Assembly (NCBI GenBank): GCA_965203325.1
Contig: OZ241875.1
Coordinates: forward strand, 1,056,001-1,120,000
Source: a bacterium
Lineage (GTDB): Bacteria > UBA8248
Length of the DNA stretch: 64,000 nt
Reading direction: 5' to 3'
The notes under the pieces: model-generated
Told to the model about the DNA's origin: nothing
Database searches by the model: none
The model's input: only the letters and a program-made list of their open reading frames with translations
Program-made: the position numbers and the translations under genes
Part shown: piece by piece, positions 49,074-62,489 of the stretch
Layout of the letters: each line of letters opens with the position of its first letter
Numbering within the stretch: position 1 is the stretch's first letter

Positions 49074-50558
49074 TCAAAGGTTTGACGTTCGGCCGCGCAC
49101 GGCGGCGAACAGCGGCCCGGGGACCGCGCGCGAAGCCTGAGAGTCCTTCAGCAGGGGCAAGTTGTCAAACATCGTTCGCCGCTCCTCCAGAATCTGTTTG
49201 AAGGCCGGACGCAGCGAACGGGGAAGCGGCATGCCTTTGGGGAGTTTCGCCTTCAGGGGGTTCAAATACCGTCCACGGCGGGTGATCCGGTAATCCAGAT
49301 GAGGACCCGTGGACAAGCCCGTGGAACCCACGTAGCCGATCACCTGGCCCTGGAGGACCCGCCTGCCCCTGCGAATCCCGCGCGCGTACCGATACAGATG
49401 GAGATAGGAGGTCCGATAACCGCCGCCATGACGCAGTTTGATCGTCTTGCCGGCCTGGCTTTTGCGGCCCACCCAGGTGACGACGCCATCGGCGACCGCA
49501 TGGACGGGCGTCCCACGGGGCGCAGCGTAGTCGACGCCGAAGTGGGGGCGGTAGCGCTTGAGCAGGGGGTGAAAGCGCTTCTTCGAGAAACGCGAACTGA
49601 TTCGCGTATAGCGAAGCGGAGATCGCAAAAAGGCGCGCCTCAGGGATTCGCCCTCGACGTTGTAATACCTGCCGCCTCCGCCCTCGAAATACACCGCGGT
49701 GTGCCGCCTCTTCCCCACGATGAACTCGGCCGCCAGAATCCTCCCGTAACCAACGAATTCATCTCTCAAGTGCTTTCGCTCGACCAGGGCCTCCACCTGG
49801 TCTCCACTTTGCAAATCCTTGTGAAAGTCAATGACAAACGCAAAAATATCGCTGAGCTTGTTCACCAGGACGGGAGAGCCGCCGCCATCGGCAATGGCTT
49901 TATACAAGGAACTATGGATGCGGGATTGAATGCGAACGACGTCTACCGAATAAGGTATGTCCTCTTTCGAGGCCGTCATCGCACCGTTCGGCGCTCGCGA
50001 AATTCTGAGTCGGCTTTCATTGTCGAGTTGAAGAACGAATTCACGGAGTTCGCCGCCTTTTTTTTTCACCTCATACCGGCGACCCGCCCGGATGCGCGAA
50101 AAAATACGTTTTTCACGGACGCTATCCAGGACTTTCTGAATCACCGAACGGGGCACATCGTGCGCCATCAACACGCCGATGACCGTGTCCGCTTTGGAGA
50201 ATTTGCCGGCTTCCGTGGTGAGTTTTTCCTCTTTCGGCAAACTCTTGGTTGGTTGATCCCGGGTGATTTTCTTTAAAGTATTTTCATCCGGCCTCTCGCC
50301 CACCCGATGCCGGGGCGCTTTGGCGATTTCCCGCTGCGTCTTGTCTTCAAGCGCTTTTTCGGTGACGCGCGCATCCGGACGCGGCGCATTCTTTCCAGAC
50401 GATTCGGAAGGGGGATGAACTACGGAGCGGCCGCTCAACAACACGCTGATGCCCAGCGCCAGCAATACGCCGACCACGCAGACCATCGCGGAACTGCTGG
50501 TGGATTTTAGTTTCGAAATAAATTGCGTGACGAGACGCGCGCGCCTCTTGCGCATCAC
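49074..50558 (-). CDS. M23 peptidoglycan DD-endopeptidase (MepM/Csd3-like)
   Basis: N-terminal TM helix, RISSRF...HP, HFGVDYAA (HxxxD), YLHL, STGPHLDY. Confidence 0.9.
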   Translation of the reverse strand: MMRKRRARLVTQFISKLKSTSSSAMVCVVGVLLALGISVLLSGRSVVHPPSESSGKNAPRPDARVTEKALEDKTQREIAKAPRHRVGERPDENTLKKITRDQPTKSLPKEEKLTTEAGKFSKADTVIGVLMAHDVPRSVIQKVLDSVREKRIFSRIRAGRRYEVKKKGGELREFVLQLDNESRLRISRAPNGAMTASKEDIPYSVDVVRIQSRIHSSLYKAIADGGGSPVLVNKLSDIFAFVIDFHKDLQSGDQVEALVERKHLRDEFVGYGRILAAEFIVGKRRHTAVYFEGGGGRYYNVEGESLRRAFLRSPLRYTRISSRFSKKRFHPLLKRYRPHFGVDYAAPRGTPVHAVADGVVTWVGRKSQAGKTIKLRHGGGYRTSYLHLYRYARGIRRGRRVLQGQVIGYVGSTGLSTGPHLDYRITRRGRYLNPLKAKLPKGMPLPRSLRPAFKQILEERRTMFDNLPLLKDSQASRAVPGPLFAAVRGRTSNL

Positions 50559-50772: not shown

Positions 50773-50791
50773 GCATTTGCCCGCATTTGCG
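50773..50791 (+). repeat. 19-bp direct repeat, left of tail-like cassette
   Basis: GCATTTGCCCGCATTTGCG versus GCATTTACCCGCATTTGCG at 57635-57653 (18/19). Confidence 0.75.
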
Positions 50792-50920
50792 AGGCGAACG
50801 CTCCTCCCCGATTCCCATATATTCGGTGACCTCGGCGCCTTCCTGCGCCGGAGTGATGCCGAAACCCAGGCGGGAGCCAGGGATTTTCCCGACATGGAAC
50901 GCCCCGCCCAGGAGAGTGGA

Positions 50921-52000
50921 ATGGGACACCGCTTCATGTACCGAAATCTCATTGACGACGAGACGCTCATCACCGCCACTTCCGTGGAGAAGGGGTTCGT
51001 CGGCGCAGGCGTGCCCCGCGTCGCGAATGCGGGCGGCTCGATGGTCTTCTCGGGCGCCTACGCCGGAGAGGACCAGGAAGTCTACTTCGCCGAAATCGAA
51101 GCGCCGGGCGACGTGGGAAGCGCCCGTTTCAGGTGGCGCAAGACATCGACACCCGCGGGCGGCTGGGAAGCCTCGAACATCCCCACCGCGCTGACGGATA
51201 CCGCCCTGGACTCGGGCGTGAAGGTCCGCTTCGTGAGCGGCGCGAGTTCACCCGCTTTCGCCTTGGGAGATCATTGGCAGGCGACGGCGAATCGCTTTTT
51301 TTCTCCAAGAAGAATCTACGATCTCGACCCCGCCACGAAGATGAGAAGCGCCTCGCCGCCCGAGGACCCATGGTCGCTCGCCCTTGATTTCGGTGAGGAG
51401 AAATCTCCCGACGTATTCATCGCCCACCTCCACAATTTCCCGCCCGGCGCAAGTCTCCGGATTCAGGCGAACGGGTCTGCAGACTGGCGCGCGCCCGCAC
51501 TCGATGAAAGGCCCATCTGGCGCAGCGGCACGCTCATCCACTATTTCGCCACCACGCCGCGCTCATACCGCCACTGGCGTTTTCTGGCCGAGGGCGTAGC
51601 CGCCGGTCAGGCTGCCTGTCTGGAAGTCTCGGAAATCTATCTGGGGGACTTTTTCGAGCCAGCCGACCATTTCTGGTTCGGGAACGTGGTGGGAGAAGAA
51701 GCTTTTGAGGAAACAAGCCGCACGGAAAGTATGGCGGAGCGTCCGGTGCTCTTGAATCGCGGCCGCAGGATCACCCTTCCCTACGAGCGCATATCGGATG
51801 AGCAGCGAGGTGCGTTTCTCGCCATGTACCGCGCGGTGAAGGACGTCGACGCCAGGCGGGCCAAGCCGTTTTTCGTTCACCTGGACGTGGACGACCCCGC
51901 CTCGGTCATTCTCGCCCACCTCACGGGCGGCTTCTTGCCGCAACAGACGGGGTCGGACGACTTCTCCTTCGAACTCGAACTCAGGGAAAGACTCGCATGA
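50921..52000 (+). CDS. Phage distal-tail (Dit)-like protein with inserted beta-sandwich domains
   Basis: SD AGGAGAG then ATG at 50921 (359 aa). Discoidin-like segment LDFG...HN...YRHWR...EIYLG; Dit-like C-terminus (KPFFV...FSFELELRE). Family call by pattern only. Confidence 0.55.
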   Translation: MGHRFMYRNLIDDETLITATSVEKGFVGAGVPRVANAGGSMVFSGAYAGEDQEVYFAEIEAPGDVGSARFRWRKTSTPAGGWEASNIPTALTDTALDSGVKVRFVSGASSPAFALGDHWQATANRFFSPRRIYDLDPATKMRSASPPEDPWSLALDFGEEKSPDVFIAHLHNFPPGASLRIQANGSADWRAPALDERPIWRSGTLIHYFATTPRSYRHWRFLAEGVAAGQAACLEVSEIYLGDFFEPADHFWFGNVVGEEAFEETSRTESMAERPVLLNRGRRITLPYERISDEQRGAFLAMYRAVKDVDARRAKPFFVHLDVDDPASVILAHLTGGFLPQQTGSDDFSFELELRERLA

Positions 52001-52530
52001 GGCGCGCTACGGACCAGGCGGTCGCGGACATCGCCGGACATGAGGGGAAAACCGCTTTCATCCTCTATCATCTCTCCACCGCCGGCGGAAAGCGCGTGTT
52101 CTGCGGCAAGCAGGTCCCCGACTCCCTGATCGGGCAAGGCGGAAGAATCCATTTCCTCGACGGCTCGCGAATTCTCGATGGCTCCCTTCTGCTGGGAGAG
52201 GGAGCGGAAGTGCTGCTCGGCGTCCATGACTGGATAGAAGACGGCGGGCGATTCTCTCTCGGCGCGTTTCAGGGCCCCTCCATTCTCGAGGCATTCCGGG
52301 AAAAGGAACTCTCCGGCCTCACGATAGCCGTCCACAACGCTCCCGACATGGACGGCCACCCGCGCATGAGCCGCATCCTTGCGACGGAGCCGCTCATTGG
52401 CGGAAGGGTCGACGTGCGCGTCGGGTTTTCGGGACAAAACATATCCGACGTTCTCTCGATCGGGAGCTTCACCATTCGCCGTATCATCGAGCGCATCGAC
52501 CAGGTCTCCATGGAGTGCGAGGGCAACTAG
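51997..52530 (+). CDS. Hypothetical phage tail-tip/hub-like protein
   Basis: ATGA overlap with the upstream gene; LDGSRILDGSLLLG motif; beta-rich C-terminus. Confidence 0.45.
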   Translation: MRRATDQAVADIAGHEGKTAFILYHLSTAGGKRVFCGKQVPDSLIGQGGRIHFLDGSRILDGSLLLGEGAEVLLGVHDWIEDGGRFSLGAFQGPSILEAFREKELSGLTIAVHNAPDMDGHPRMSRILATEPLIGGRVDVRVGFSGQNISDVLSIGSFTIRRIIERIDQVSMECEGN

Positions 52531-53742
52531 ATGAGTGACCCGACGACGGACCGGCTCTCGGACGCATTCCCGATAGGGCGCGCTTCGAGGTACGCCGACC
52601 CTGAATTCGAAGACCAGAGTCTCCCCATCATCTATGGGGATTTGACCACTCCTTCGCGCGAGAACGCGGGCGTTTACGAGCTTCCGAAAATCGACTCCGC
52701 CGGGGGCGGCGTCTACTGCGTGGCCGCCCATGAGATTTCGGGAGCCGTCGCGCTTTTCGACGACGGTGGCCGCATCGAGCCGGAAAGCTACTCCCTGGAA
52801 CTCGCCCGGAACTACCAGGGCAGGGGCGCAATCGCCACGGCCGCTTTCGCAGACCCGCCGAAGGGGCGCGTGACCGCCGTATGCAAGGGCAGGAAAAACG
52901 ACAGCGGCGCGCTCATCGAAAACCCCGCAGAGGTCGTTTATGACCTGATGACGAGCGTCTGGGGGTTCGGCGAGCAGGCCCTCGACATGCAGGCCCTCTC
53001 GCGCGCGGCAGCCGGCGCGAAGGCCCTCGGCTACCGGGCGGGCGGGATCATCATGGACGACCATGCGCCCGCCGACATCCTCACCTCGCTTTTGGGCGAT
53101 TTCCTCGGGCGATACGAAATCGACCCGTTCGGCCGTCTGAAAATTCACATCACAGGAGAGGAACCTTCCGCCATTTCGCCCCAAAAGGTTCTGCCGCGTT
53201 TCGGCCACTCGAGCATCGAGGCGGAGATGGCGCGCGACACCGTCGTCAATCAGGTTCCGGTGCTCTATGCAAAGGATTATCCGGGCGCGCGCTACATCAG
53301 ACACGACGACGGGAGCGCCGCCCGGAACATTTCCTCCCAAAGGCTCTATGGCGTCAGGAGACCTCCGCAAAGCCCGCTCAGGCTCGACTGGGTCCGGCGC
53401 GAGCGCGTTGCCGCAACGGTTCAATCGCGCATCGTGGAGCGCTGTCACGAACCCACCCGCATGCTCACCATCGAGGACGGCTCCTTGAGAGCGCTCGAAA
53501 TCGAACCGGACGACTACGTGGCGTTCAGCGTGCCCTGGATGCGCTCCGAGAAGCTCGAACCCCTCGTGAATCAAATCGGAGAAGTCATCGAGGTGAATTA
53601 CGACCTGGGTGAGCAGGGCATGGAGCTCAAAATCCGGGATACCGGCTTTTTCCTGACGTCCTCCCTTCTTTTGGACGGGAGCAGAACACTCGAAGGCGGC
53701 CGGCTCCTGGGCGCCGAGCGCGACGCCGCCACTTACGCATAA
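52531..53742 (+). CDS. Phage baseplate hub/tail-tip-like protein
   Basis: LPIIYGD, G.LIENPA.V.YDL, LEIEPDDYV and terminal LDGSRTLEGG motifs recall tail-tip proteins. Confidence 0.55.
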   Translation: MSDPTTDRLSDAFPIGRASRYADPEFEDQSLPIIYGDLTTPSRENAGVYELPKIDSAGGGVYCVAAHEISGAVALFDDGGRIEPESYSLELARNYQGRGAIATAAFADPPKGRVTAVCKGRKNDSGALIENPAEVVYDLMTSVWGFGEQALDMQALSRAAAGAKALGYRAGGIIMDDHAPADILTSLLGDFLGRYEIDPFGRLKIHITGEEPSAISPQKVLPRFGHSSIEAEMARDTVVNQVPVLYAKDYPGARYIRHDDGSAARNISSQRLYGVRRPPQSPLRLDWVRRERVAATVQSRIVERCHEPTRMLTIEDGSLRALEIEPDDYVAFSVPWMRSEKLEPLVNQIGEVIEVNYDLGEQGMELKIRDTGFFLTSSLLLDGSRTLEGGRLLGAERDAATYA

Positions 53743-53753
53743 AGGAGAAAACG

Positions 53754-54695
53754 ATGCCCATCGGAGCCGATCTGTCCGCCCGTTACACCGAGGAAGCCAT
53801 CGGCGGCCATCACCCCACGAAAGCCCGCGTCATCGACCGCCTGGCCCTCGCCGCCCTGTTCCCGGACGGAAAAATCAGGGCCGACAGGCAACCCATCGAA
53901 TGCGCGGGCAGGCTCGATTACGTGAACGCCACCACCCTGGCGTTCAGGCCGGCGCTGGGCTCCGCCTATTATCCCGCCGTCGCCAATCCCGTGGCGGGCC
54001 GCCATGTGCCCTTCATCGACGAAGCGTCGGGAGACGTCTATTACGAGGATTTGCCGTGGGAGGGCATCACGATTACGAACGCGGACCTCGAGGCGGACAG
54101 CTCCCATGCGGTCTTCGTCTACGATGACGGAGGCGGGCTCAAGCTCGAATTCGACCACGCGGGAAGCTGGGCGTTCGACGCCGCCACGGGGCTGGCGCAC
54201 AAAACGGACGACAAGAGCCGCACCCTCGCCGGGGTCGCGAGAACGGACGGCTCATCGCAATTCGTCCTCGCGAACGACGTGTATGTCAGAAGTTTCTGGA
54301 ACAAGGCGGCATACGCCGCGCAGTCCAAAGGAACGCTCGCCACCACCCTGTCCACCGACTGGACCTCCGTCGCCACGCACGAAATCCTGATGTGGCCGGG
54401 ACATGACGTCATCCGCCAGGAAGCCGGCGGACAAGGCTGGGTGAATTCGACGAGCATCGCGGGTCTGGCGGGTCTGGACATGAACCTCGAACTGTTCGGC
54501 GGAACGGGGCAGGCCTATCCGGAAGTCGAAATCATTCGCTTGTCGAACAATGAAAAAGACAACTTCGCGATTGCGAGCACACGAATATACAGGGGCGCCC
54601 TCGCCGAGGTTCACTCCACGTTCGTCTTTCGCGTGGCGGGCTCGACCATCCTGAACATCGGCGACTATCTCTTCCAAAGCGTCGTCTTGATCTAG
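53754..54695 (+). CDS. Tail fibre/receptor-binding-like protein
   Basis: SD AAGGAG; beta-rich; RTLAGVARTDGSSQF...VRSFWN segment resembles phage fibre modules. Confidence 0.5.
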   Translation: MPIGADLSARYTEEAIGGHHPTKARVIDRLALAALFPDGKIRADRQPIECAGRLDYVNATTLAFRPALGSAYYPAVANPVAGRHVPFIDEASGDVYYEDLPWEGITITNADLEADSSHAVFVYDDGGGLKLEFDHAGSWAFDAATGLAHKTDDKSRTLAGVARTDGSSQFVLANDVYVRSFWNKAAYAAQSKGTLATTLSTDWTSVATHEILMWPGHDVIRQEAGGQGWVNSTSIAGLAGLDMNLELFGGTGQAYPEVEIIRLSNNEKDNFAIASTRIYRGALAEVHSTFVFRVAGSTILNIGDYLFQSVVLI

Positions 54696-54704
54696 GAGGC
54701 CAAT

Positions 54705-55400
54705 ATGGAAATCGAAGTGACCAAAGCCGTCGGGCCGCATTTTCGAGATGAACTCAAAACCGCCGGCCTCGCGCACCTCTACCTGGGCAGCGCGCACCGG
54801 CTGAAAACGACCATGGTGAATGACGCCGACTGGCGGCCCAAGCCCGGCGAGACGGAATCCGCCCGTCCCGAAATCCACGGCCCCGGTCGGGACACGTGGG
54901 TCATCAACGTAGCCGGTTCAAGCACCCGGGCGCAGCGCGAAGCCATTCTCGCCGCTCATGCCGCGCACGTGCCCGGTGGCATCGCTGATATCCATCGAGA
55001 CGAGGCGAAGGAGAAGCTCAACCTGTTGCTGAACGCCGCCAAGGCGCGCATCGTGGGCGTGCCGGTGAGCGCTCTGGGCGGCAAGCTGGCCGAATACGAG
55101 GAAAAAGCCAAGCTCATCGACGCCTGGGCGCAGGATTCAGGCGAGAACAAACTCGCAAAGCCGGGGTTCGCGCTCATCAAAAACAGAAAAGACGCCTATC
55201 CCGCGCGCTACGCGACGGGCCAAAGCGTGGTGGATGAGTGGACGAGCCGGAGGACGGCCCTGCTCGGCAAGCTCGCCTCTCTCCTTAAAATTTATGATGA
55301 GAGCGTGCGCGACACCCGGGACGCCGCCGTCACCGCCAGCGTGGCGGCCCTGGATTCCAGACTCGAAGAAGCCGCCTCTTCTTTCGACAAGGTGCGCTGA
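54705..55400 (+). CDS. Tail fibre assembly chaperone-like hypothetical protein
   Basis: SD AGGAGG; directly follows the fibre gene; AILAAH..H.P followed by a helical EYEEKA...AW domain. Confidence 0.4.
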   Translation: MEIEVTKAVGPHFRDELKTAGLAHLYLGSAHRLKTTMVNDADWRPKPGETESARPEIHGPGRDTWVINVAGSSTRAQREAILAAHAAHVPGGIADIHRDEAKEKLNLLLNAAKARIVGVPVSALGGKLAEYEEKAKLIDAWAQDSGENKLAKPGFALIKNRKDAYPARYATGQSVVDEWTSRRTALLGKLASLLKIYDESVRDTRDAAVTASVAALDSRLEEAASSFDKVR

Positions 55401-55783
55401 TGGCGTCTGAAGGAAATGGAAAAGGGCTCCAGATATTCCTGTCCATCCTGAGCATCGCCGGCTTAGGTGTCGCCGCCTACACGCCGCTCTACAACCAGAT
55501 CGTGAACGTGGAAAGGCGTCTGGCGGCCCACATGGCCGAGCGGGGCCACTCCTGGCTTTTGGAGAAAAACGCGGGCGCGCGCGTCCGCTTCCGGGAAGTG
55601 GAAACCCGGTTGCGGGAGGCGAAGACGATCGCCGATCTCGAATTCCGTGAACTCAAAGCGATTTCCGTGAAAAAAACGCGCGGGGACGCGCAAACCTTCG
55701 CGCAAATACTTCGCCGCCTGCGCGAGGTCGAAACCGCGCTCGCCAGACTCGACGAGCGCCTGAACAAGGAGCGTCAACCATGA
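55400..55783 (+). CDS. Membrane-anchored coiled-coil protein (holin/spanin-like position)
   Basis: TGATG overlap; TM segment IFLSILSIAGLGVAAY; coiled coil ending LARLDERL. Confidence 0.45.
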   Translation: MASEGNGKGLQIFLSILSIAGLGVAAYTPLYNQIVNVERRLAAHMAERGHSWLLEKNAGARVRFREVETRLREAKTIADLEFRELKAISVKKTRGDAQTFAQILRRLREVETALARLDERLNKERQP

Positions 55784-55902
55784 TTCCTTATCTTCTCGCG
55801 GCGCTTTTCTCGGCCGCCGCCGTCTTTTGCGTCATCGCGGTGGTCGAGCCGCGCCTCATCACGAACCACCTGTGGCATTTCATCAACCCCTGGGCGGATT
55901 AG
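55780..55902 (+). CDS. 40-aa single-TM protein, below the ORF-track cutoff
   Basis: SD AAGGAG and ATGA overlap; MIPYLLAALFSAAAVFCVIAVVEPRLITNHLWHFINPWAD. Confidence 0.6.
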   Translation: MIPYLLAALFSAAAVFCVIAVVEPRLITNHLWHFINPWAD

Positions 55903-55954
55903 CGCACCCCGCTGCGCACCCCATCCAGCATCTCGTTCATGAATAGGGGATTCC

Positions 55955-57634
55955 ATGCCGAAGCACGTCCACAAGATATCGGTGATAAAGAAAATCGACC
56001 TGAACTCCGGGAACAGCCTGAAAGCGCTCGACCGCTTCACCAAGGCGGCGGGCCGGGCGAGAATCGCCACGGAAAAACTCAAGGCCGAAATGCATGGGTC
56101 CCGGAGCGCGCTCGAAAAATCGAGCCGCGCCTTCGTGAGGTCTTCAGAACGCCTCCAGAGAGTCGGCGCTTCGTCCACCGATGCCGCCGAGGGGATGCAC
56201 TCCCTGTGGAGGAATGCGGAACGAGCCGGCTCCCGACTCGCCTCCGGCCCGCTCACGAGGGGTCTCGATGAGGTCAAGGCGAAAGCCGCCGCCCTGCCCG
56301 CTTCTTTCCGGGTCGCCGGAAGGGCGGTGAACGACTTCGCCTCGGCGAGCGAGCAGACGCTCACCCGGTTTTTCTCGAGCGTCCTCACCGGCAAAATCGA
56401 CAGCGCCAAGGACCTGTTCAGCGACCTCAAGAACCACGCCATCAACATGGTTCGGAACGCCGCCGCCGAGATGGCGAGCACGCAGTTCATCAAGCCCGCG
56501 GTGGGCGCACTCCAGGATTTGGGGCTGAACCTGGTGGGCGATCTGGGGAAGGGGCTGCTCAGTGTATTCGGATTTTCCAAGGGAGGTCTGGTGAAAAAGC
56601 CCACCCTGGGCGTGATTGGCGAGGCGGGGCCGGAACTCGTCGTGCCGCTGGCGAAAATCGGCGGCGAGGCGGGCCTCATGCGGCTTTTCCAGTCCGTCTC
56701 CGAACTCGAGGCGGCCAACCGCATCGGCGGCACGGCGGTGGCCACCGCCGCAGGCGAAAAGGCGAGCGGCGCGCTGGCCGCGCGGATTGCGGCGACGAAA
56801 GCAGCGGCGGCCCTGCGGGTCGCTTTTTCGGCGCTGGACTTCCTGAGCGGCCCCAAGACACTGAAAACAGGGGCGAACCTGGCCATCAACGTCGCGGGCG
56901 CCGTCCCCGCGCTCGCGGGCGCCACCGGCCTCGCCGCCTTCGGGCCGGCGGCGGGCGCTTTTCTGCTCACCGACGTCCTGTTCAACAAGGGCGGCGCCAT
57001 CAAACAGGTGCTCTCCTTCCTGGGCTTCAAGGGCTTCCGGGACAGGTCCACCCCCTTCACTCGGGGAATCGCGAATCTCGCGCAGGCAGCCGGGCTGTAC
57101 ATCGCGCTCGATAAATTCCAGAAAACCGGCGTAGCGGATGAAGCGCGGCTCCTCTCGCTTCCCAAGGCGGTCTACGAAGGCCGGATGAGCGTGGACCCCC
57201 CTTTGCTGGAAAAAGCGGGCCTCACGTTTCAGCTCATTCAAAGGGCGGCCGGGAAGGCGGGCATCTCGCCCCAGGAGGGAGTGAAGCGGTATTTCGGCCA
57301 AAGCCTCTACTCATCATATTTGGGGGCGTTGCCCGTACTCATCGATGAAGGCGACGCGGCGGGGCGTTTCGTCAAGCGCTCAGCACTCAGGCTCGTGGGC
57401 GAGGCGGGGCCCGAGCACATCATGAACGTGAACCACCCGCAATCGATCGACTTCTTTCAGCGCGGCGTGCGGCCCATCATCCGCGACGCGATACGGGAAG
57501 AAACCGGCGGGGGCAACAGCCACGTATACCATATTCACATCGAAGGGAACCTGAGCGACAACCGCACGCTGGAGAAGCTCTCGCGCAAGCTCGAGGACAT
57601 CAACAGGCGCCGCCGCCGCTACGGGCGGGGGTAG
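55955..57634 (+). CDS. Phage tail tape measure-like protein
   Basis: Ala/Gly/Leu-rich and helical; FGFSKGGLVKKPTLGVIGEAGPELVVPL motif, a second GEAGPE copy, and YHIHIEG beta-strand plus terminal helix typical of TMP C-termini. Confidence 0.72.
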   Translation: MPKHVHKISVIKKIDLNSGNSLKALDRFTKAAGRARIATEKLKAEMHGSRSALEKSSRAFVRSSERLQRVGASSTDAAEGMHSLWRNAERAGSRLASGPLTRGLDEVKAKAAALPASFRVAGRAVNDFASASEQTLTRFFSSVLTGKIDSAKDLFSDLKNHAINMVRNAAAEMASTQFIKPAVGALQDLGLNLVGDLGKGLLSVFGFSKGGLVKKPTLGVIGEAGPELVVPLAKIGGEAGLMRLFQSVSELEAANRIGGTAVATAAGEKASGALAARIAATKAAAALRVAFSALDFLSGPKTLKTGANLAINVAGAVPALAGATGLAAFGPAAGAFLLTDVLFNKGGAIKQVLSFLGFKGFRDRSTPFTRGIANLAQAAGLYIALDKFQKTGVADEARLLSLPKAVYEGRMSVDPPLLEKAGLTFQLIQRAAGKAGISPQEGVKRYFGQSLYSSYLGALPVLIDEGDAAGRFVKRSALRLVGEAGPEHIMNVNHPQSIDFFQRGVRPIIRDAIREETGGGNSHVYHIHIEGNLSDNRTLEKLSRKLEDINRRRRRYGRG

Positions 57635-57693
57635 GCATTTACCCGCATTTGCGCGCATCCGGGCCCCGCATTTCCCCGCAAATCCCCGCATTT
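57635..57693 (+). repeat. Tandem 10-bp-period CCCGCATTT array, including the right 19-bp direct repeat
   Basis: GCA at 57635/57645/57655 and CCCCGCA at 57664/57674/57684; begins at the base after the TMP stop. Confidence 0.8.
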
Positions 57694-58050
57694 CCACTCG
57701 GAAATTTTCAGCAATTTACCGGCTCCGCCTCGCGTGATCCGCCAATCTCCTTGTCACCTTTTGTCGCATGACAGTTCAGATACAGAATCCCTTACATAGC
57801 TGCACAGGGTTTGGATTTCAAATAATGCTTATGTATTGATTGGTTTGTTCGAGACGCATGTGTCGACTAAGCGAATACGACATGAAATCGCTTGGGTACG
57901 TGCGAGTTTGAATTCGCCCGCTTCCGCTTTGATTGCATCTTACAAAATACGAATCCCGAGCGAAGTTTCCAAAAACCAATACCTGCAACAGTTTCAATAA
58001 ACTACAAGGACTCCACCCCCGTTGGAATTCCCCCACTGTCTGAAAACACG

Positions 58051-58450
58051 CAACAACTCCGAGCGAAAGCACCGCCCCACCCCCGACCTGTCCCGCATCC
58101 GGGGAACACGAACCCGCACCGCACCGACACCCGTCAAAACCTCCCGCGACGGCAGGTAGCCGCCCAGCACCACCGTGCGACGGCCTCGCGTGTCTCGCTC
58201 GGTAGAATGCTCTTCCAGAAAGGCCCCCAACTCCGCTTCCACCGTCTGGCGGATGATTCGCTGCGCGCCTTCGCGCACCAGTTCGCTCAACTCGTCTCGA
58301 AAGGCTGGATTCGTAAAGGGAATCGTCGTATCTTCGTGCATGGTGGCGCATCTCCTATTTGCTGAATGACAGGGCTTCTCACAACCCCATTCCAGCAGGA
58401 ATGCGCCGCCTTCTTCAATTCAACCCATACACAAGATCTGAGGGTAACTC
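58051..58450 (-). mobile_element. Truncated IS256-family element (left end plus about 97 codons of transposase)
   Basis: ATG at 58341: DELSELVREGAQRII...VEAEL..FL...GYLP.REVLTGVG.V.VRVPR.RDR...FRS, after which similarity stops. IR-like end GAGTTACCCTCAGATCTTGTGTATGG at 58450-58425. Confidence 0.85.
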
Positions 58451-58468
58451 CATAATATAGTGTCATTC

Positions 58469-60469
58469 CTAAAACGCCCCGGTGACGCCGACGAGGAAGA
58501 CATCGGTGCGCGCCGAGGCGTCACTGTGCGTTTGGTCCGGCATTATCTCGCCGCTTTCGTCCTTGATGTTGCCGCCGCTGATGAAGTCCAAGGGTGTGTA
58601 TCCATCGACACGGATGTATTCGGCAAAGAGCTTCACGCTGGGCCGGGGCAACCAGGCCACGCCCAGGGCAAGCTGGTTCTGGCGCTCCCACGGCGCGTCA
58701 TCCGGACCGGCGACGAATCGGCTGAGTTCGATGGAAAAATCCAGAGGGCCGCGACTGGAGTCGTACCGGTATCCGGCCCCGACCCTGAAGCTCGTCACCT
58801 TGCTCGCCGGGAATTGCGGGATGCCGGGGTTGAATGTAGCGGGCCACTCATTCACCGTACGGATGAACTCGCCCCCGATATTGAGATTGTCATGGACGAG
58901 TTTTCCGTAAACGCCTGAAGCCGGGTTGTTGTCCTTGCAGGGCGCGAAGTGAACAACCGGAAAATCCTGGCAATAAGCCGTCCCGCGCAGGTATGACCCT
59001 CCCAGGAGAAACGTGCCCCAGGAAGCGAGTTCTATCGTATAGTTCGCGTTCACGGCGAAGTTGTTCAGTTTGCTCGGGACGGCGGTTCCGTTCACCGGGG
59101 TGTTTACGGCCCTGAACTGCGCTCCTCCCTGCACGCCCATGAAGGAGAGGTTCAACCCGTCGCTGGAATAGCCCAGCTTCAAGCCGTTGGCCAGCCCTCC
59201 GAAGGCGTGCCAGACGCTCGAGGCGGAGAACGGATTGACGGTATCTGTGAGACCGAAGGGAATCGCCATCTTGCCCAGGCTGGCATAGAGCGGCGACCTG
59301 TCGAGATTTCCGATCAGGACCCAGGCGCGCCGCAATTGCAGCTGGTTGCGTTCCAGGTCCGTATTGGTTCCCTGGCCGAAACTCTGTTGCGGATCATAGA
59401 GAATCTCGGCGTTGGCGGTAATCCACCCGCCGAGCGCACCCGTGAATCCGAGTTGCGCCGAATGGATCGCCGCCTCGGAAACCACGGTCCCCGCCTGATT
59501 CTTTCCGGTCGGGTGGCGCATCAGGTATCCGAACTTGTTCTCCCTGTTGCTCGACTGGTAATCGGCTATCGCGGTGACCGCACCGTGCAGGTGAACGCTG
59601 TCCGGGGCGAGTACGCCCTCTTGCTTGCGCTGGAGTACCAGGCGTTGCTTGGAGTTGATGTTCGTCGTCGGGTCGAGGATCTCGTAGCCGAATTGCGGGT
59701 CGATCCGGATGAATCCGGTTTTGGCTCTCGCGGGCGCAGCCTCCCTCGCGGATACATCCATTGACAGGTCGCCCGAAGCGTAGCGGACGAAGCCGCCCGC
59801 TTCCACTTGCGCGGAGCCTCCCTCGAGCGAAGGCGTCAGCACGAGGTTCTCCCCGAAGCGCGACGAGCGTGAGCCTTCGGGCGGTACGCGAACGCGGCTT
59901 GCATCCCCGTCAACTCCGGGCAGGCCCGGCGCCGCCTCGCCGGTATCCGCCGGCGTCGTGGCCGTGGCGACCGCAGAGGGAGGCCCCGCTCCCGACTCGC
60001 CGACCGCCGAGACGCGGTAGTGATACGTCGTGCCTCCCGGGAGGCCCGAGTGCCAGTACTCCGTGTCACTGACGCCCGTCTCGGGGACAAGGTCGCTCCA
60101 GCCCGCCTCCTCTTCGCGGACCTCTATCCGGTAGGTCAGGAACGCCGATTCGCTGACCGGAGGTGCGCGCCAGGACAGGAAGATGACCGAAGATCCCTCC
60201 GCCCGCGCCGTGAGGCCGCCGGGCGCGATCGCCGCCGCGCCGTTGACCAGAGTGGCGGCCTGGGCATGGGCCAGCCCGGCGGAGGCCGGCGCCATGACGG
60301 CGAGGAGAACGAGACACGCCGCGAGACTGCTCCGCCACAAGGTCAGGGGCCGCCGGTCGGGGGGGATACAGGCGGGTGTTCGGCTTCTTCGGTCTCGAGC
60401 CCAATCATGACTTCCGGCTCCGGGCACAGTCGCAACTCCCGGCTCTTCAAGGGACGATGGGTGCATCAA
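58469..60469 (-). CDS. Fibronectin type III domain fused to an outer-membrane beta-barrel (LbtU-like porin)
   Basis: Signal-peptide-like segment (..LAHA-Q); FN3 (LSWRAP...YRIE...GL.GGTTYHYRVSAV); barrel with alternating strands, GKMAIPFG and terminal Phe. True start probably downstream of 60469. Confidence 0.7.
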   Translation of the reverse strand: MMHPSSLEEPGVATVPGAGSHDWARDRRSRTPACIPPDRRPLTLWRSSLAACLVLLAVMAPASAGLAHAQAATLVNGAAAIAPGGLTARAEGSSVIFLSWRAPPVSESAFLTYRIEVREEEAGWSDLVPETGVSDTEYWHSGLPGGTTYHYRVSAVGESGAGPPSAVATATTPADTGEAAPGLPGVDGDASRVRVPPEGSRSSRFGENLVLTPSLEGGSAQVEAGGFVRYASGDLSMDVSAREAAPARAKTGFIRIDPQFGYEILDPTTNINSKQRLVLQRKQEGVLAPDSVHLHGAVTAIADYQSSNRENKFGYLMRHPTGKNQAGTVVSEAAIHSAQLGFTGALGGWITANAEILYDPQQSFGQGTNTDLERNQLQLRRAWVLIGNLDRSPLYASLGKMAIPFGLTDTVNPFSASSVWHAFGGLANGLKLGYSSDGLNLSFMGVQGGAQFRAVNTPVNGTAVPSKLNNFAVNANYTIELASWGTFLLGGSYLRGTAYCQDFPVVHFAPCKDNNPASGVYGKLVHDNLNIGGEFIRTVNEWPATFNPGIPQFPASKVTSFRVGAGYRYDSSRGPLDFSIELSRFVAGPDDAPWERQNQLALGVAWLPRPSVKLFAEYIRVDGYTPLDFISGGNIKDESGEIMPDQTHSDASARTDVFLVGVTGAF

Positions 60470-60663
60470 TCTTCCTGTCGGGAATTCTCATCTCCACACG
60501 GAGCGACAGACGCCTCCCCGGAGGATGCAAATAAATCCACTTTATTCACCGATAAGTATACAAAATCCACCTGTCTTTAGCGTATCTTTTTCGTCTCTTT
60601 TCATGCCTCTTTCATGTATGCTTGCGTTTTTTGCCGTATTTTCTGCTCCGGGAGGGAAGAACG

Positions 60664-61093
60664 ATGAACGGATGCGACGACGCGGGGCGCATCCGGGCCG
60701 AGAGCGCAGACGCGGGCCTCGGGGCGCGTTTCACCTTCACGCTGCCGGCGGAGGAGGAGACCGGAGCGGCGGGCGCGCCGCCCGCGCACGGCAGGGGGAG
60801 TGAACCCGCTCGCGTCCTGGTGGTGGACGACGACCCCGAGACGCTGCGCCACGCCCGCGAGGCGCCCGAGCTGGCCGACCTGCCGGTCATCTTCATCTCG
60901 GCCTACGGGCATGAGGAGACCGTCGTGCGTGCGCTCGATGGTCTGGGGGAGGCGCGAGGACGCGGGCGTGCAGGCGGTGCGCAACTTCGTGAAGAAGCTC
61001 CGCCGCAAGCTCGGCGACGACCCCGCGCAGCCCGCCTTCATCCACAACGTGCGCGGCGTCGGCTACCGCATGCCGAAGCCCGGCGAGACGTAG
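60664..61093 (+). pseudogene. Multiply deleted hybrid histidine kinase/receiver/OmpR-type wHTH gene
   Basis: Consecutive fragments GRIRAES..GLGARFTFTLP, RVLVVDDDPETLR and LPVIFISAYG, then in another frame VWG...VRNFVKKLRRKLGDD...IHNVRGVGYR. Confidence 0.8.
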
Positions 61094-61225
61094 CAATCCC
61101 CAACACGGGCCCGCCGTGATGCGCTGGAGTTGGAACGAGTCCGCTTTCGGCTTGTTTACGGACTCTTCAGGGCTGGTTCGAGAACGGGCCGGTAGCAGTT
61201 ATGAAAAATGAATATACAGAAATGA

Positions 61226-61238
61226 TATCAACGCGTTA
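61226..61238 (+). promoter_or_regulatory. Possible IHF-binding site
   Basis: TATCAACGCGTTA matches WATCAANNNNTTR with an AT-rich upstream tract. Confidence 0.35.
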
Positions 61239-61298
61239 CGGGAACTCCGCAGTAAAGGGAAAAAGACCGGCATCCCTGGATATCTGGATTTTCCGGGA

Positions 61299-61341
61299 AT
61301 TTACGGAAAAACCCCGCAAATTTATCGAATTTTATCGAATT
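61299..61341 (+). repeat. 43-bp dispersed repeat, copy 2
   Basis: 36/43 identity to 35761-35803; contains TTTATCGAAT twice in tandem. Confidence 0.8.
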
Positions 61342-61355
61342 GTTTACTATTTCCC

Positions 61356-62489
61356 CTAAAGCAGACTCACCACCCGTTCGAGTTCTTCTTCGGTGTTATA
61401 GAAATGCGGCGCGAAGCGAAGGCCGTTGTTGCGCGCGCTGGCGATGACTCTCTTCTCGCGCAGGCGCGCCGCCGCCTTGGGCGGATCGGGCGACTCGATG
61501 CTCACGATGGCGGCGCGCTGCTCCCAGGGGCGAGGCGTCAGAATCTTCTCGCCCCGCCTCTCCAACAACTCCATCAGATACGTCGTCAGCCCCCGCACGC
61601 GCGCCTCGACCTGAGCAAGCCCCACTTCTGCCAGGAACTCGACCGAGCGGCCGAGCACCCATAATCCCAGATAATTCTGGTTCCCGATCTCGAAGCGGCC
61701 GGCGTCCGGGGCCAGTCCGACCTCCATCCGGGGACGCGCTTCAGGCACCATGCTGGCGCGGGCATAGAAAGGGGGCTTCATCCCGGGAATCAGGTCTTCG
61801 CGGCAATAGAGAAAACCCGTGCCCGGCAGGCCGAGCAACCCCTTGTGCCCGCCGCAGACCACGATGTCCGCCCCGAGGACAGGCAGCGACGCCGAGAGGA
61901 TTCCGACCCCCTGAATCGCGTCCGTCATCAAGACGACCCCGCGCTCGCGGCAGGCCGCGCCCAGAGCGGGCAGGTCCACCCGGCAGCCCGTGCCGAAAGT
62001 CACGTAGGAGACCGCCACGACGCGCGTTCGCTCGTCCATCGCTTCGATGAACGCCTCCACGGAGGGGTAGCCGTCCCCGTTTCGCACCCACCTGAGTTCG
62101 ACGCCGTTTTCCTCCAGGCGCTTCCAGGCGTACACCTGGTTCGGGTGGTCCATTTCCGCCTGGATGACGTTGTCCCCCGCCTTGAGATCGAGTGCCTGCG
62201 CGGCGATGTTCAATCCCTCCGACGTGTTCTTGATGAACGCGAGCGCTCCCGGCGATACGCCTAGGAGCGATGCCAGTGAGGTGCGGATCTCCTCCACGCG
62301 CAGCTTGGAGAAGGCTTCCCGGACGCCGCCTTCGTTCATCTCCCGCAGGAAATCGGGGATGGCGTCTTGGGCGCACCGGGGAAGGGGCGCCTTGTTGGCG
62401 AGGTCGAGATAGGTCCAGTTCCGGGTGACGGGAAACGCTTCTCGCAGCGCCGCAAAATCAGGAGCAACCGCCCCCTGTTGTTCGTTCAT
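61356..62489 (-). CDS. Class V PLP-dependent aminotransferase family enzyme
   Basis: NTSEGLN, DAIQGVG, GGHKGLLG (PLP lysine), RFEIG, LRFAPHFYNT. Confidence 0.9.
   Translation of the reverse strand: MNEQQGAVAPDFAALREAFPVTRNWTYLDLANKAPLPRCAQDAIPDFLREMNEGGVREAFSKLRVEEIRTSLASLLGVSPGALAFIKNTSEGLNIAAQALDLKAGDNVIQAEMDHPNQVYAWKRLEENGVELRWVRNGDGYPSVEAFIEAMDERTRVVAVSYVTFGTGCRVDLPALGAACRERGVVLMTDAIQGVGILSASLPVLGADIVVCGGHKGLLGLPGTGFLYCREDLIPGMKPPFYARASMVPEARPRMEVGLAPDAGRFEIGNQNYLGLWVLGRSVEFLAEVGLAQVEARVRGLTTYLMELLERRGEKILTPRPWEQRAAIVSIESPDPPKAAARLREKRVIASARNNGLRFAPHFYNTEEELERVVSLL

Follow-up and report, generated by a model that had tools for sequence, protein, structure and literature searches.

In a 64,000-nucleotide stretch of bacterial DNA (contig OZ241875.1, positions 1,056,001 to 1,120,000; hereafter the window), we studied a cassette of eight open reading frames (ORFs o1 to o8) at positions 50,921-57,634. 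We found that it is best explained, with a probability of roughly 0.62, as the tail-tip and tape-measure operon of a domesticated and vertically inherited particle system of siphophage origin, similar to a gene transfer agent (GTA), whose genes are distributed over four genomic segments. That the cassette is part of a conserved multi-locus particle system of some kind we regard as highly likely, and gene transfer as the particular function of that system, predicted from gene content, as somewhat better than an even bet. A GTA-type gene set was found in full: a small and a large terminase (the latter split), a portal and a capsid protein fused to a protease, then Neck1, the tail genes for tube, tape measure and hub, and the lysis pair of holin and endolysin. 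Inheritance appears to be vertical, with the cassette and a second locus both at the same sites in 12 of 12 relatives, presence in 20 of 22 genomes of the genus, and ratios of nonsynonymous to synonymous divergence (dN/dS) between 0.14 and 0.31. Coordinates below are positions in the window unless given with the handle G000, which denotes the focal genome; other G labels denote genomes and L labels fetched loci.

A sequence-only reading of the window had described the cassette as standing alone, with no head, tube, lysin or integrase gene. This description holds within the window, but not for the genome as a whole as far as head, tube and lysis genes are concerned. Whole-genome tblastn searches were run with the ORFs of distant relatives and with a set of 605 ORFs taken from 36 loci, viral or distant, and both query sets pointed to G000 at about 1.60-1.62 Mb. 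In all, the search of the rest of the genome for tube, capsid and terminase clusters located them at G000 1.599-1.606, 1.616-1.619 and 1.634-1.636 Mb. Taking the cassette itself (50,921-57,634; o1, the o2+o3 hub, o4, o5-o7 and o8) as segment A, segment B (G000 1,599,331-1,605,535) carries two overlapping chaperone-like ORFs, a tail tube (Phage_tube_2, 9.7e-12), connectors that include Neck1 (phrog_5, 1e-15), and a 692-aa fusion of protease and major capsid protein (Phage_capsid_4, 4e-44; phrog_4523). Segment C (G000 1,615,638-1,618,692) carries the portal (phrog_10963, 3.9e-46) and a large terminase (GpA_ATPase, 4.5e-20) at G000 1,616,990-1,618,692 (L092:6990-8692, minus strand). This terminase is divided into an ATPase ORF of 352 aa and a nuclease ORF of 215 aa that lie in different frames, overlap at ATGA and both match phrog_675; judging from the reading frames, the split would reflect either a two-subunit terminase or programmed frameshifting. 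Segment D (G000 1,633,736-1,636,430), for which 12 chosen ORFs were scanned against PHROGs, holds a 110-aa ORF together with a small terminase (phrog_426, 3.5e-9), a holin (phrog_3427, 6.7e-24) and an endolysin (phrog_7, 2.9e-21).

About 10 kb of host genes, cdaA included, separate segments B and C, and the cassette lies about 490 kb from its tube gene. Among the ORFs scanned with Pfam beside segments A, B and C, we found no integrase, repressor or replication gene, only host-type genes such as those for an ammonium transporter, an adenylate cyclase, an ABC transporter, an F420-dehydrogenase beta-subunit-type protein and CofD. Genome searches for PF05065, PF03237, PF03354 and PF04860 were empty, the head genes belonging to other families. 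Some candidates were rejected: a 147-aa ORF upstream of the large terminase, considered as small terminase, has a weak DUF520 fragment and is poorly conserved, and a region at G000 ~1.448-1.463 Mb, considered as small terminase or phage protein, consists of IS1595 fragments and an asparagine synthase gene. In the second locus, ORFs p155, p245 and p178 and the 5' part of p253 contain stops in relatives, with dN/dS above 1 for p155 and p245, and are probably wrong-strand or over-extended calls.

The relatives of the focal genome belong to the Nitrospinota, with family-level relatives labelled 'Candidatus Tectomicrobia', and the sequencing runs that hold cassette DNA are mostly labelled as sponge metagenome. 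Within the genus, o3 is intact in 20 of 22 genomes at 68-96% identity, and in all 12 of the same-genus loci that we fetched the eight ORFs stand in the same order beside plsX, yceD, ppx and a hexapeptide transferase gene, with the M23 peptidase gene in place in 9 of the 12. Intact frames account for 92 of the 96 cassette ORF copies in these 12 relatives, at a median synonymous divergence among species of about 0.5. Median pairwise dN/dS, obtained with a simple Nei-Gojobori script from pairs with dS of 0.05-2 among relatives that are not independent of one another, was 0.24 for o1, 0.18 for o2, 0.24 for o3, 0.24 for o4, 0.31 for o5, 0.17 for o6, 0.20 for o7 and 0.26 for o8, similar to the flanking housekeeping genes plsX (0.09), ppx (0.20), hexapeptide transferase (0.07) and M23 (0.26). 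Given this genus-wide synteny, the intact frames and the low dN/dS, the cassette is maintained under purifying selection and is not a remnant. The sequence-only reading had proposed a maintained module from intact frames beside decayed neighbours, and the comparison across the genus bears this out: the cassette is syntenic in 12 of 12 loci, is not confined to one strain, and has dN/dS values (0.17-0.31) well below 1 rather than near neutrality. Segments B and C are likewise syntenic in 12 relatives, with dN/dS of 0.17 for the tube, 0.175 for the capsid, 0.14 for the portal, 0.22 and 0.20 for the terminase halves and 0.16 for chaperone A, alongside 0.17 for the host gene cdaA.

The segments also share their pattern of presence and absence. 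Searches of the 22 genus genomes recovered capsid, large terminase and small terminase in 20 each and the holin in 18, the two extra holin misses being fragmented assemblies. The two remaining genomes, G008 and G009, lack o3, capsid, both terminase subunits and holin alike; in both, the host flanks of the cassette locus remain, as do the host genes lying between segments B and C, and the phage-derived genes are gone, with a 41-residue remnant of the portal still present in G009. No genome that carries the cassette without segments B-D was seen among the 22 searched. In a tree of three flanking housekeeping proteins (854 columns), G009 lies inside the crown (support 92/89, drawn open) and G008 forms the deepest branch. 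Because G009 nests within the crown, its loss of the system is secondary.

Two sister genera show the system in an unbroken form. In L050 and L049, where o3 is 57% and 54% identical to that of the window, a single strand carries contiguously p236, Neck1, p253, the tube, chaperone A, chaperone B and then o1-o2-o3, followed in L050 by o4, and the tube is 65-68% identical to that of G000. L050 has a homologue of o8 between the chaperones and o1, and L049 has about 4 kb at that position without a detected o8 match. Segments A and B therefore derive from one ancestral cluster. From a comparison of these gene orders, the break in the focal genus is placed between the chaperones and the tape-measure gene, which apparently ended up behind o7. 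In the class-level relatives G027 and G032, capsid, connectors and relatives of o1 and o3 also lie within one region, and in the sister genus G023 the cluster is decayed, with the hub in three pieces and the capsid not found there. The suggestion that the cassette is one part of a split GTA or tailocin locus thus survives in its first half, as the shared phyletic pattern and the contiguity in sister genera show a split; the tailocin half is disfavoured by the conserved capsid, portal and terminase.

We also found a shared promoter design in front of the dispersed operons. A promoter-like region at 50,773-50,823 (plus strand) consists of a double 10-bp direct repeat, GCATTTGCCCGCATTTGC, at 50,773-50,790, and a -10-like box, TATATT, at 50,818-50,823, which is 45 nt past the start of the motif. 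A common double direct repeat, with the core CGCATTT[GC]CCCGCATTTGCG and a 10-bp period, was recovered from the 300-400 nt that precede each of o1, the capsid gene and the large terminase. This core 10-mer was present upstream of o1 in 13 of 13 sequences, of the capsid gene in 11 of 13 and of the terminase in 10 of 11. Upstream of o1 it lies at about 107-139 nt in all 13 genus sequences, as a conserved island in an otherwise diverged spacer and followed by a -10-like hexamer. Genome-wide, the double motif GCATTT[GC]C[CG]CGCATTTGC occurs at 26 sites, only 4 of which have a TA[TGC]A[TA]T box within +30 to +69. In all four the box is at +45 and reads TATATT or TAGATT (TA[TG]ATT), and all four sites precede phage-derived operons. 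Three were already known from the regions upstream of the large terminase, capsid and o1 genes. The fourth, at G000 1,634,835, precedes the 110-aa ORF and the small terminase of segment D, with endolysin and holin just upstream of the site. The distribution of this small terminase (20 of 22) is the same as that of the other markers, and we take the discovery of its locus through the promoter design as an independent and successful prediction of the co-regulation idea. The spacing, with the direct repeat ending about 27 nt before the -10 box, resembles by analogy the sites of winged-helix response regulators that replace the -35 element. Taken by itself, the repeat motif may simply be a repeat found generally in the genome, and it becomes specific only when paired with the box at +45. 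The motif is also seen just after the o8 stop, at the edge of an insertion (57,642-57,677), and elsewhere in G000, for example at 1,297,018, 1,304,670, 1,414,389, 1,450,585 and 2,723,314; several of these sites adjoin a repeated 'gagttaccatataaacttgagcg...' element.

At the protein level, sequence profiles told us little about the cassette. Pfam returned nothing usable for the eight proteins, with o1-o5 and o8 lacking any match; PHROGs gave a tape-measure hit for o8, only phrog_34951 for o6, and none for o1 or o5; and profile searches of o1, o2, o4 and o5 against PDB sequences gave nothing below an E-value of 0.27. The clearest assignment comes from structure prediction. The AlphaFold2 model of o3 (52,531-53,742, plus strand, 403 aa; pLDDT 89, pTM 0.82) matched 39 PDB chains at an E-value of 0.001 or below with Foldseek, the best being the DT57C and T5 hubs (2e-11 to 6e-11, TMq about 0.6), with further matches to JBD30, Chi, the lambda tail tip and the RcGTA hub chain 6tba_8A (4.5e-8). 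The predicted model thus confirms a siphophage baseplate hub fold of the pb3/gpJ/gp27-like type for o3, as the sequence-only reading had guessed. The hub is apparently encoded in two pieces: o2 (51,997-52,530, plus strand, 177 aa) ends in a TAG stop codon that is in frame with o3 and is followed immediately by ATG (52,528-52,533). Six viral loci have one ORF of 561-574 aa across the o2 and o3 positions (L060, L062 and L063, with queries of 574 aa; L077, L086 and L087 with 561-571 aa), that of L086 matching o2 by BLASTP at an E-value of 4e-6. From these fused counterparts we read o2 as the N-terminal piece of the hub, cut from o3 by the in-frame TAG.

For o1 (50,921-52,000, plus strand, 359 aa) the sequence-only reading had proposed a distal tail protein (Dit), which is supported by gene position only, the fold searches having returned a CBM32/discoidin-type sugar-binding domain. 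The AlphaFold2 model (pLDDT 81) gave CBM32/discoidin matches alone with Foldseek (E-value about 3e-4), and VIA-align against CBM32 reached a Z-score of 13.7 and a root-mean-square deviation of 2.4 over 121 residues. Both fold searches were filled by this domain, leaving residues ~250-359, the C-terminal third, barely covered. Homologues of o1 follow the tape-measure gene in L050, in L056 and in five annotated phage loci, and its relatives in phages match phrog_8610, of 'unknown function'. A complex prediction of tube and o1 scored 0.00, without control runs. The families of both proteins consist largely of unannotated sequences: that of o3 comprises 59 clusters, all 'hypothetical' or LamG-labelled, which carry the organism label Nitrospinae/Nitrospinota, Tectomicrobia or plain 'bacterium' where they carry one, and that of o1 comprises 43 clusters with similar types of label. 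Some Nitrospinota homologues of o3 (P0031-P0035) and of o1 (P0087-P0092) are about 230 residues longer, most of them with LamG (PF13385), which suggests that binding domains are exchanged on the tail tip.

The tape-measure assignment of o8 (55,955-57,634, plus strand, 559 aa) is supported by a match to PHROG 1535, 'tail length tape measure' (E-value 1.8e-8), and by the canonical position of its homologue in L050, and it agrees with the original guess for this probable tape-measure protein, which also contains two GEAGPE motifs. It is about half as long as in five annotated phage relatives (559 aa versus 1008-1390 aa). The fibre and chaperone roles that had been suggested for o4 and o5 are leads only. 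In o4 (53,754-54,695, plus strand, 313 aa), similarity to the phage genes in the equivalent place is limited to the N-terminal ~40 residues (L070, L071, L089 and L090), and its nearest ESM-Atlas clusters are mostly viral, one carrying mtd_2nd. As it follows the hub and shares these anchor-like residues, o4 is a probable tail fibre or receptor-binding protein. The 231-aa o5 (54,705-55,400, plus strand) has no match in Pfam, PHROGs or PDB sequences, and the Atlas cluster closest to it is viral, 15% of its members carrying XkdW, a weak match that offers a weak lead to an accessory role in fibre assembly or as a chaperone. The expected pair of membrane proteins was recognised by eye from sequence, each with a single hydrophobic N-terminal stretch: o6 (55,400-55,783, plus strand, 127 aa; phrog_34951, 2.7e-4) has one N-terminal hydrophobic helix that would anchor it in the membrane, followed by a charged repeat-like tail that looks helical or coiled-coil, and o7 (55,780-55,902, plus strand, 40 aa), a putative single-pass membrane peptide, was found in 12 of 12 relatives. 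In 5 of the 12 relatives, one to three tandem genes for lipoprotein-like proteins of 182-217 aa stand between o7 and o8 (L011:12664-13317; L013:12795-14582, three copies; L014:13052-14821, three copies; L015:13266-13862; L019:12626-13279). Their products have a signal peptide and a Cys lipobox and no Pfam match, their copy number is variable, and the o7/o8 gap of the window (55,903-55,954) holds none; they might be exclusion, immunity or spanin-like factors.

Phages provide a further view of the tail tip. We found relatives of o3 in 32 IMG/VR viral contigs at 25-35% identity, with a relative of o1 just upstream in 27 of the 32 and o2 detected by tblastn in 14. In five viral loci, of which 67 proteins were annotated with PHROGs, the gene order is head-tail adaptor, head closure, Neck1, tail terminator, major tail protein, chaperone, tape measure, o1-o2/o3-like genes and fibre. 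Because the phage relatives show this canonical order around o1-o2-o3, the window cassette is a genuine distal-tail module, with the difference that its tape-measure gene comes last rather than before o1. In one viral locus (L067:11207-14453), the gene that takes the place of o4 codes for a fibre, and Avd and a reverse transcriptase come after it. These amount to a diversity-generating retroelement directed at the fibre, which has no counterpart in the window. In an order-level relative, L016 (G026:C4:142000-161900), relatives of o1, o2, o3 and o4 accompany an SLT lysozyme and a different head module that contains a weakly SPP1-portal-like 457-aa protein, and the o1 relative is the N-terminus of a 904-aa protein. 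By tblastn, none of the head genes of this locus matches G000. As L016 pairs the tail-tip module with a different head module, this module moves from one phage backbone to another.

Taken as a GTA-like system, the four operons would be switched on together by a host regulator binding the direct repeats. The small terminase and the two-piece large terminase would then fill heads built from the protease-capsid protein with host DNA through the portal, and o8, o1 and o2/o3 would form an initiator on which the tube of segment B polymerises. The putative fibre o4 would bind the receptor, with the CBM32 domain of o1 adding glycan binding, and holin and endolysin would lyse the cells and release the particles. 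Since the genes span 529.5 kb from segment A to segment D, the particles could not carry their own gene set, and it is this dispersal that makes a gene transfer agent the likely product. The more specific proposal that this is an independently domesticated GTA of the Nitrospinota, with four dispersed operons wired to one host regulator through the direct-repeat motif, we advance tentatively, at a little short of even odds.

The main rival to gene transfer as the function is a killing particle resembling PBSX of Bacillus. PBSX is conserved and does not propagate; its head, tail and lysis genes form a single contiguous, contractile-tailed locus, and the particle packages DNA of the host. More broadly, the same multi-locus particle could serve another use, as such a killing particle or phage-like bacteriocin, or as a device for lysis and DNA release in the sponge microbiome. 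The evidence from conservation and completeness fits such uses equally well; head, tail and lysis genes are conserved here as in PBSX, o1 carries a sugar-binding domain, and the LamG inserts in homologues of o1 and o3 from other Nitrospinota suggest that surface recognition is evolving. The variable lipoprotein genes inside the cassette of some species could likewise be immunity or exclusion factors. However, capsid, portal and both terminase subunits are under purifying selection, none of which a pure killing tail would need, and neither Pfam nor PHROGs recognised a toxin-like payload in the cassette. The system also differs from PBSX in being non-contractile and dispersed. We regard another use as unlikely.

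It is very improbable, in our estimation, that the segments are the scattered and functionless remains of an old prophage that persist by chance. Rearrangement would fit such remains, with the tape-measure gene moved and host genes between capsid and portal, as would the large terminase in two frames, the decay in G023 and the two genus members that lost everything. Against this stand the 92 of 96 ORF copies that are intact despite the divergence at synonymous sites (median dS about 0.5), the dN/dS of 0.14-0.31 for all structural genes tested, and promoter motifs that are conserved in diverged spacers. Hardly any weight falls on an F-type (non-contractile) tailocin encoded in pieces. F-type pyocins and tailocins are non-contractile phage tail modules kept by the host together with a lysis cassette, and a siphophage-type hub, tape measure, tube, chaperones and lysis pair are all present here; to our knowledge, tailocin loci are without capsid, portal and terminase genes, whereas in this system the head and packaging genes are retained, under selection, co-conserved and apparently co-regulated with the tail genes. 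Least credible of all is a stand-alone tail tip that arms the particles of other elements and alters their host range, as the sequence-only reading had considered in view of a window without tube, head or lysis gene and which the cassette's own promoter would suit, since the same genome encodes the matching tube, chaperones and head, with a common phyletic pattern and promoter design and with contiguity in the sister genera.

Several observations count against the GTA-like system that we prefer. All genomes are metagenome-assembled genomes of uncultured organisms, and no RNA run holding cassette sequence was found among the sequencing runs listed. The Dit fold of o1 was not recovered in either of the two fold searches that its CBM32 domain dominated. 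In 11 of 11 relatives, two separate frames encode the large terminase, a split that could mean a crippled packaging motor, although both halves have dN/dS of about 0.2. Broken copies of cassette genes occur in G005 (o1 and o4) and G006 (o2 and o6), due either to local decay or to assembly indels. The dN/dS medians come from a simple method applied to relatives that are not independent, and the absence in G008 is a loss only if the element is older than the genus, which its presence in other genera of the family suggests. Finally, the repeat motif is found at 22 other sites, some beside repeated elements, and could represent a wider regulon or a repeat targeted by mobile elements.

Among known systems, the closest analogue in logic is the RcGTA type of the Alphaproteobacteria (Rhodobacter capsulatus, Caulobacter), in which siphophage-derived head-tail genes stand in the host chromosome and tail, fibre and lysis genes at separate loci. 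RcGTA passes vertically from parent to offspring, is kept by purifying selection and answers to a response regulator of the host (PMC10883770, PMC11841831). The system described here is likewise siphophage-derived, multi-locus and vertically inherited, and the o3 model matches the RcGTA hub chain. Unlike RcGTA, it belongs to the phylum Nitrospinota, shares no family with it at the sequence level, and has no Pfam GTA or DUF match for o1-o5 and o8. The HK97-type PF05065, Terminase_6N, TerL_ATPase and Phage_portal families were not found in this genome; its capsid protein is of the Phage_capsid_4 type and fused to a protease, and its gpA-type terminase is split. The putative regulatory motif of the four operons is, we presume, also unrelated to the CtrA box. 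With the tail tips of T5, lambda, JBD30 and Chi the cassette shares the hub fold, and its phage relatives keep the order of tape measure, Dit-position gene, hub and fibre; it differs from them in a tape-measure gene that comes last, a hub split by TAG and the remote location of the tube gene.

According to a recent preprint, few GTAs are known outside the Alphaproteobacteria, and their loci are mostly unknown or incomplete (10.1101/2024.11.15.623857). Known GTA lineages are few overall, and almost all of them belong to that class. Our literature searches on gene transfer agents with Nitrospinota, Nitrospinae, Tectomicrobia or sponge symbiont returned nothing relevant, the matches being Alphaproteobacterial or unrelated. 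We therefore consider the element a computational candidate for a GTA-like system that is new for the Nitrospinota. If true, this would provide a dedicated route of gene exchange for uncultured bacteria of a genus linked to sponges and for related 'Tectomicrobia'-labelled lineages, and would provide a further GTA lineage for which all genes are known from the start. For a new phylum it supplies a candidate gene set that is complete, along with a promoter signature that can be searched for. G008 and G009 serve as natural loss-of-element species for comparison and the sister genera keep the unsplit arrangement, so that the steps of domestication can be traced, namely splitting, shortening and relocation of the tape measure, and splitting of the terminase. 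There is also a methodological caution, in that a 'headless' tail cassette in a single window can be a piece of a dispersed system.

The layout of the cassette and its flanks was as first described. The eight ORFs are co-oriented on the plus strand, intact and tightly coupled, with ATGA overlaps at o1/o2 and o6/o7, TGATG at o5/o6, and GGAG-type sites with short spacers before o4 and o5, all of which we found again. Upstream lies the M23 peptidase gene (49,074-50,558, minus strand; Pfam, 3.4e-29), with plsX, yceD, the Ppx/GppA phosphatase gene and the hexapeptide transferase gene also on the opposite strand. Downstream is a stub of an insertion sequence (IS) at 58,050-58,452, which corresponds, with a match of about 83%, to the 5' ~400 bp of an IS256-family (Transposase_mut) element with seven intact copies elsewhere in the genome. 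In the closest relative, L009, an aminotransferase gene (61,356-62,489 in the window) begins within about 120 bp after o8. Because this gene directly follows o8 there, the intervening region of the window (57,635-61,355) is a strain-specific insertion and lies outside the element; it contains the IS256-family stub, a copy of the motif at 57,642-57,653 and other repeat fragments. The insertion also holds a 666-aa ORF with one fibronectin type III (fn3) domain in Pfam (58,469-60,469, minus strand), which is single-copy in the genome and missing from the corresponding position in the closest relative. A PIN-domain gene and a 267-aa gene (G000 1,612,491-1,613,757; L092:2491-3757) are inserted into the run of host genes that separates segments B and C; they form a pair that is complete only in G000 and its closest relative, with the 267-aa gene alone in G014 and a frame-broken PIN gene beside the 267-aa gene in G009, and this pair looks like a toxin-antitoxin-type insertion.

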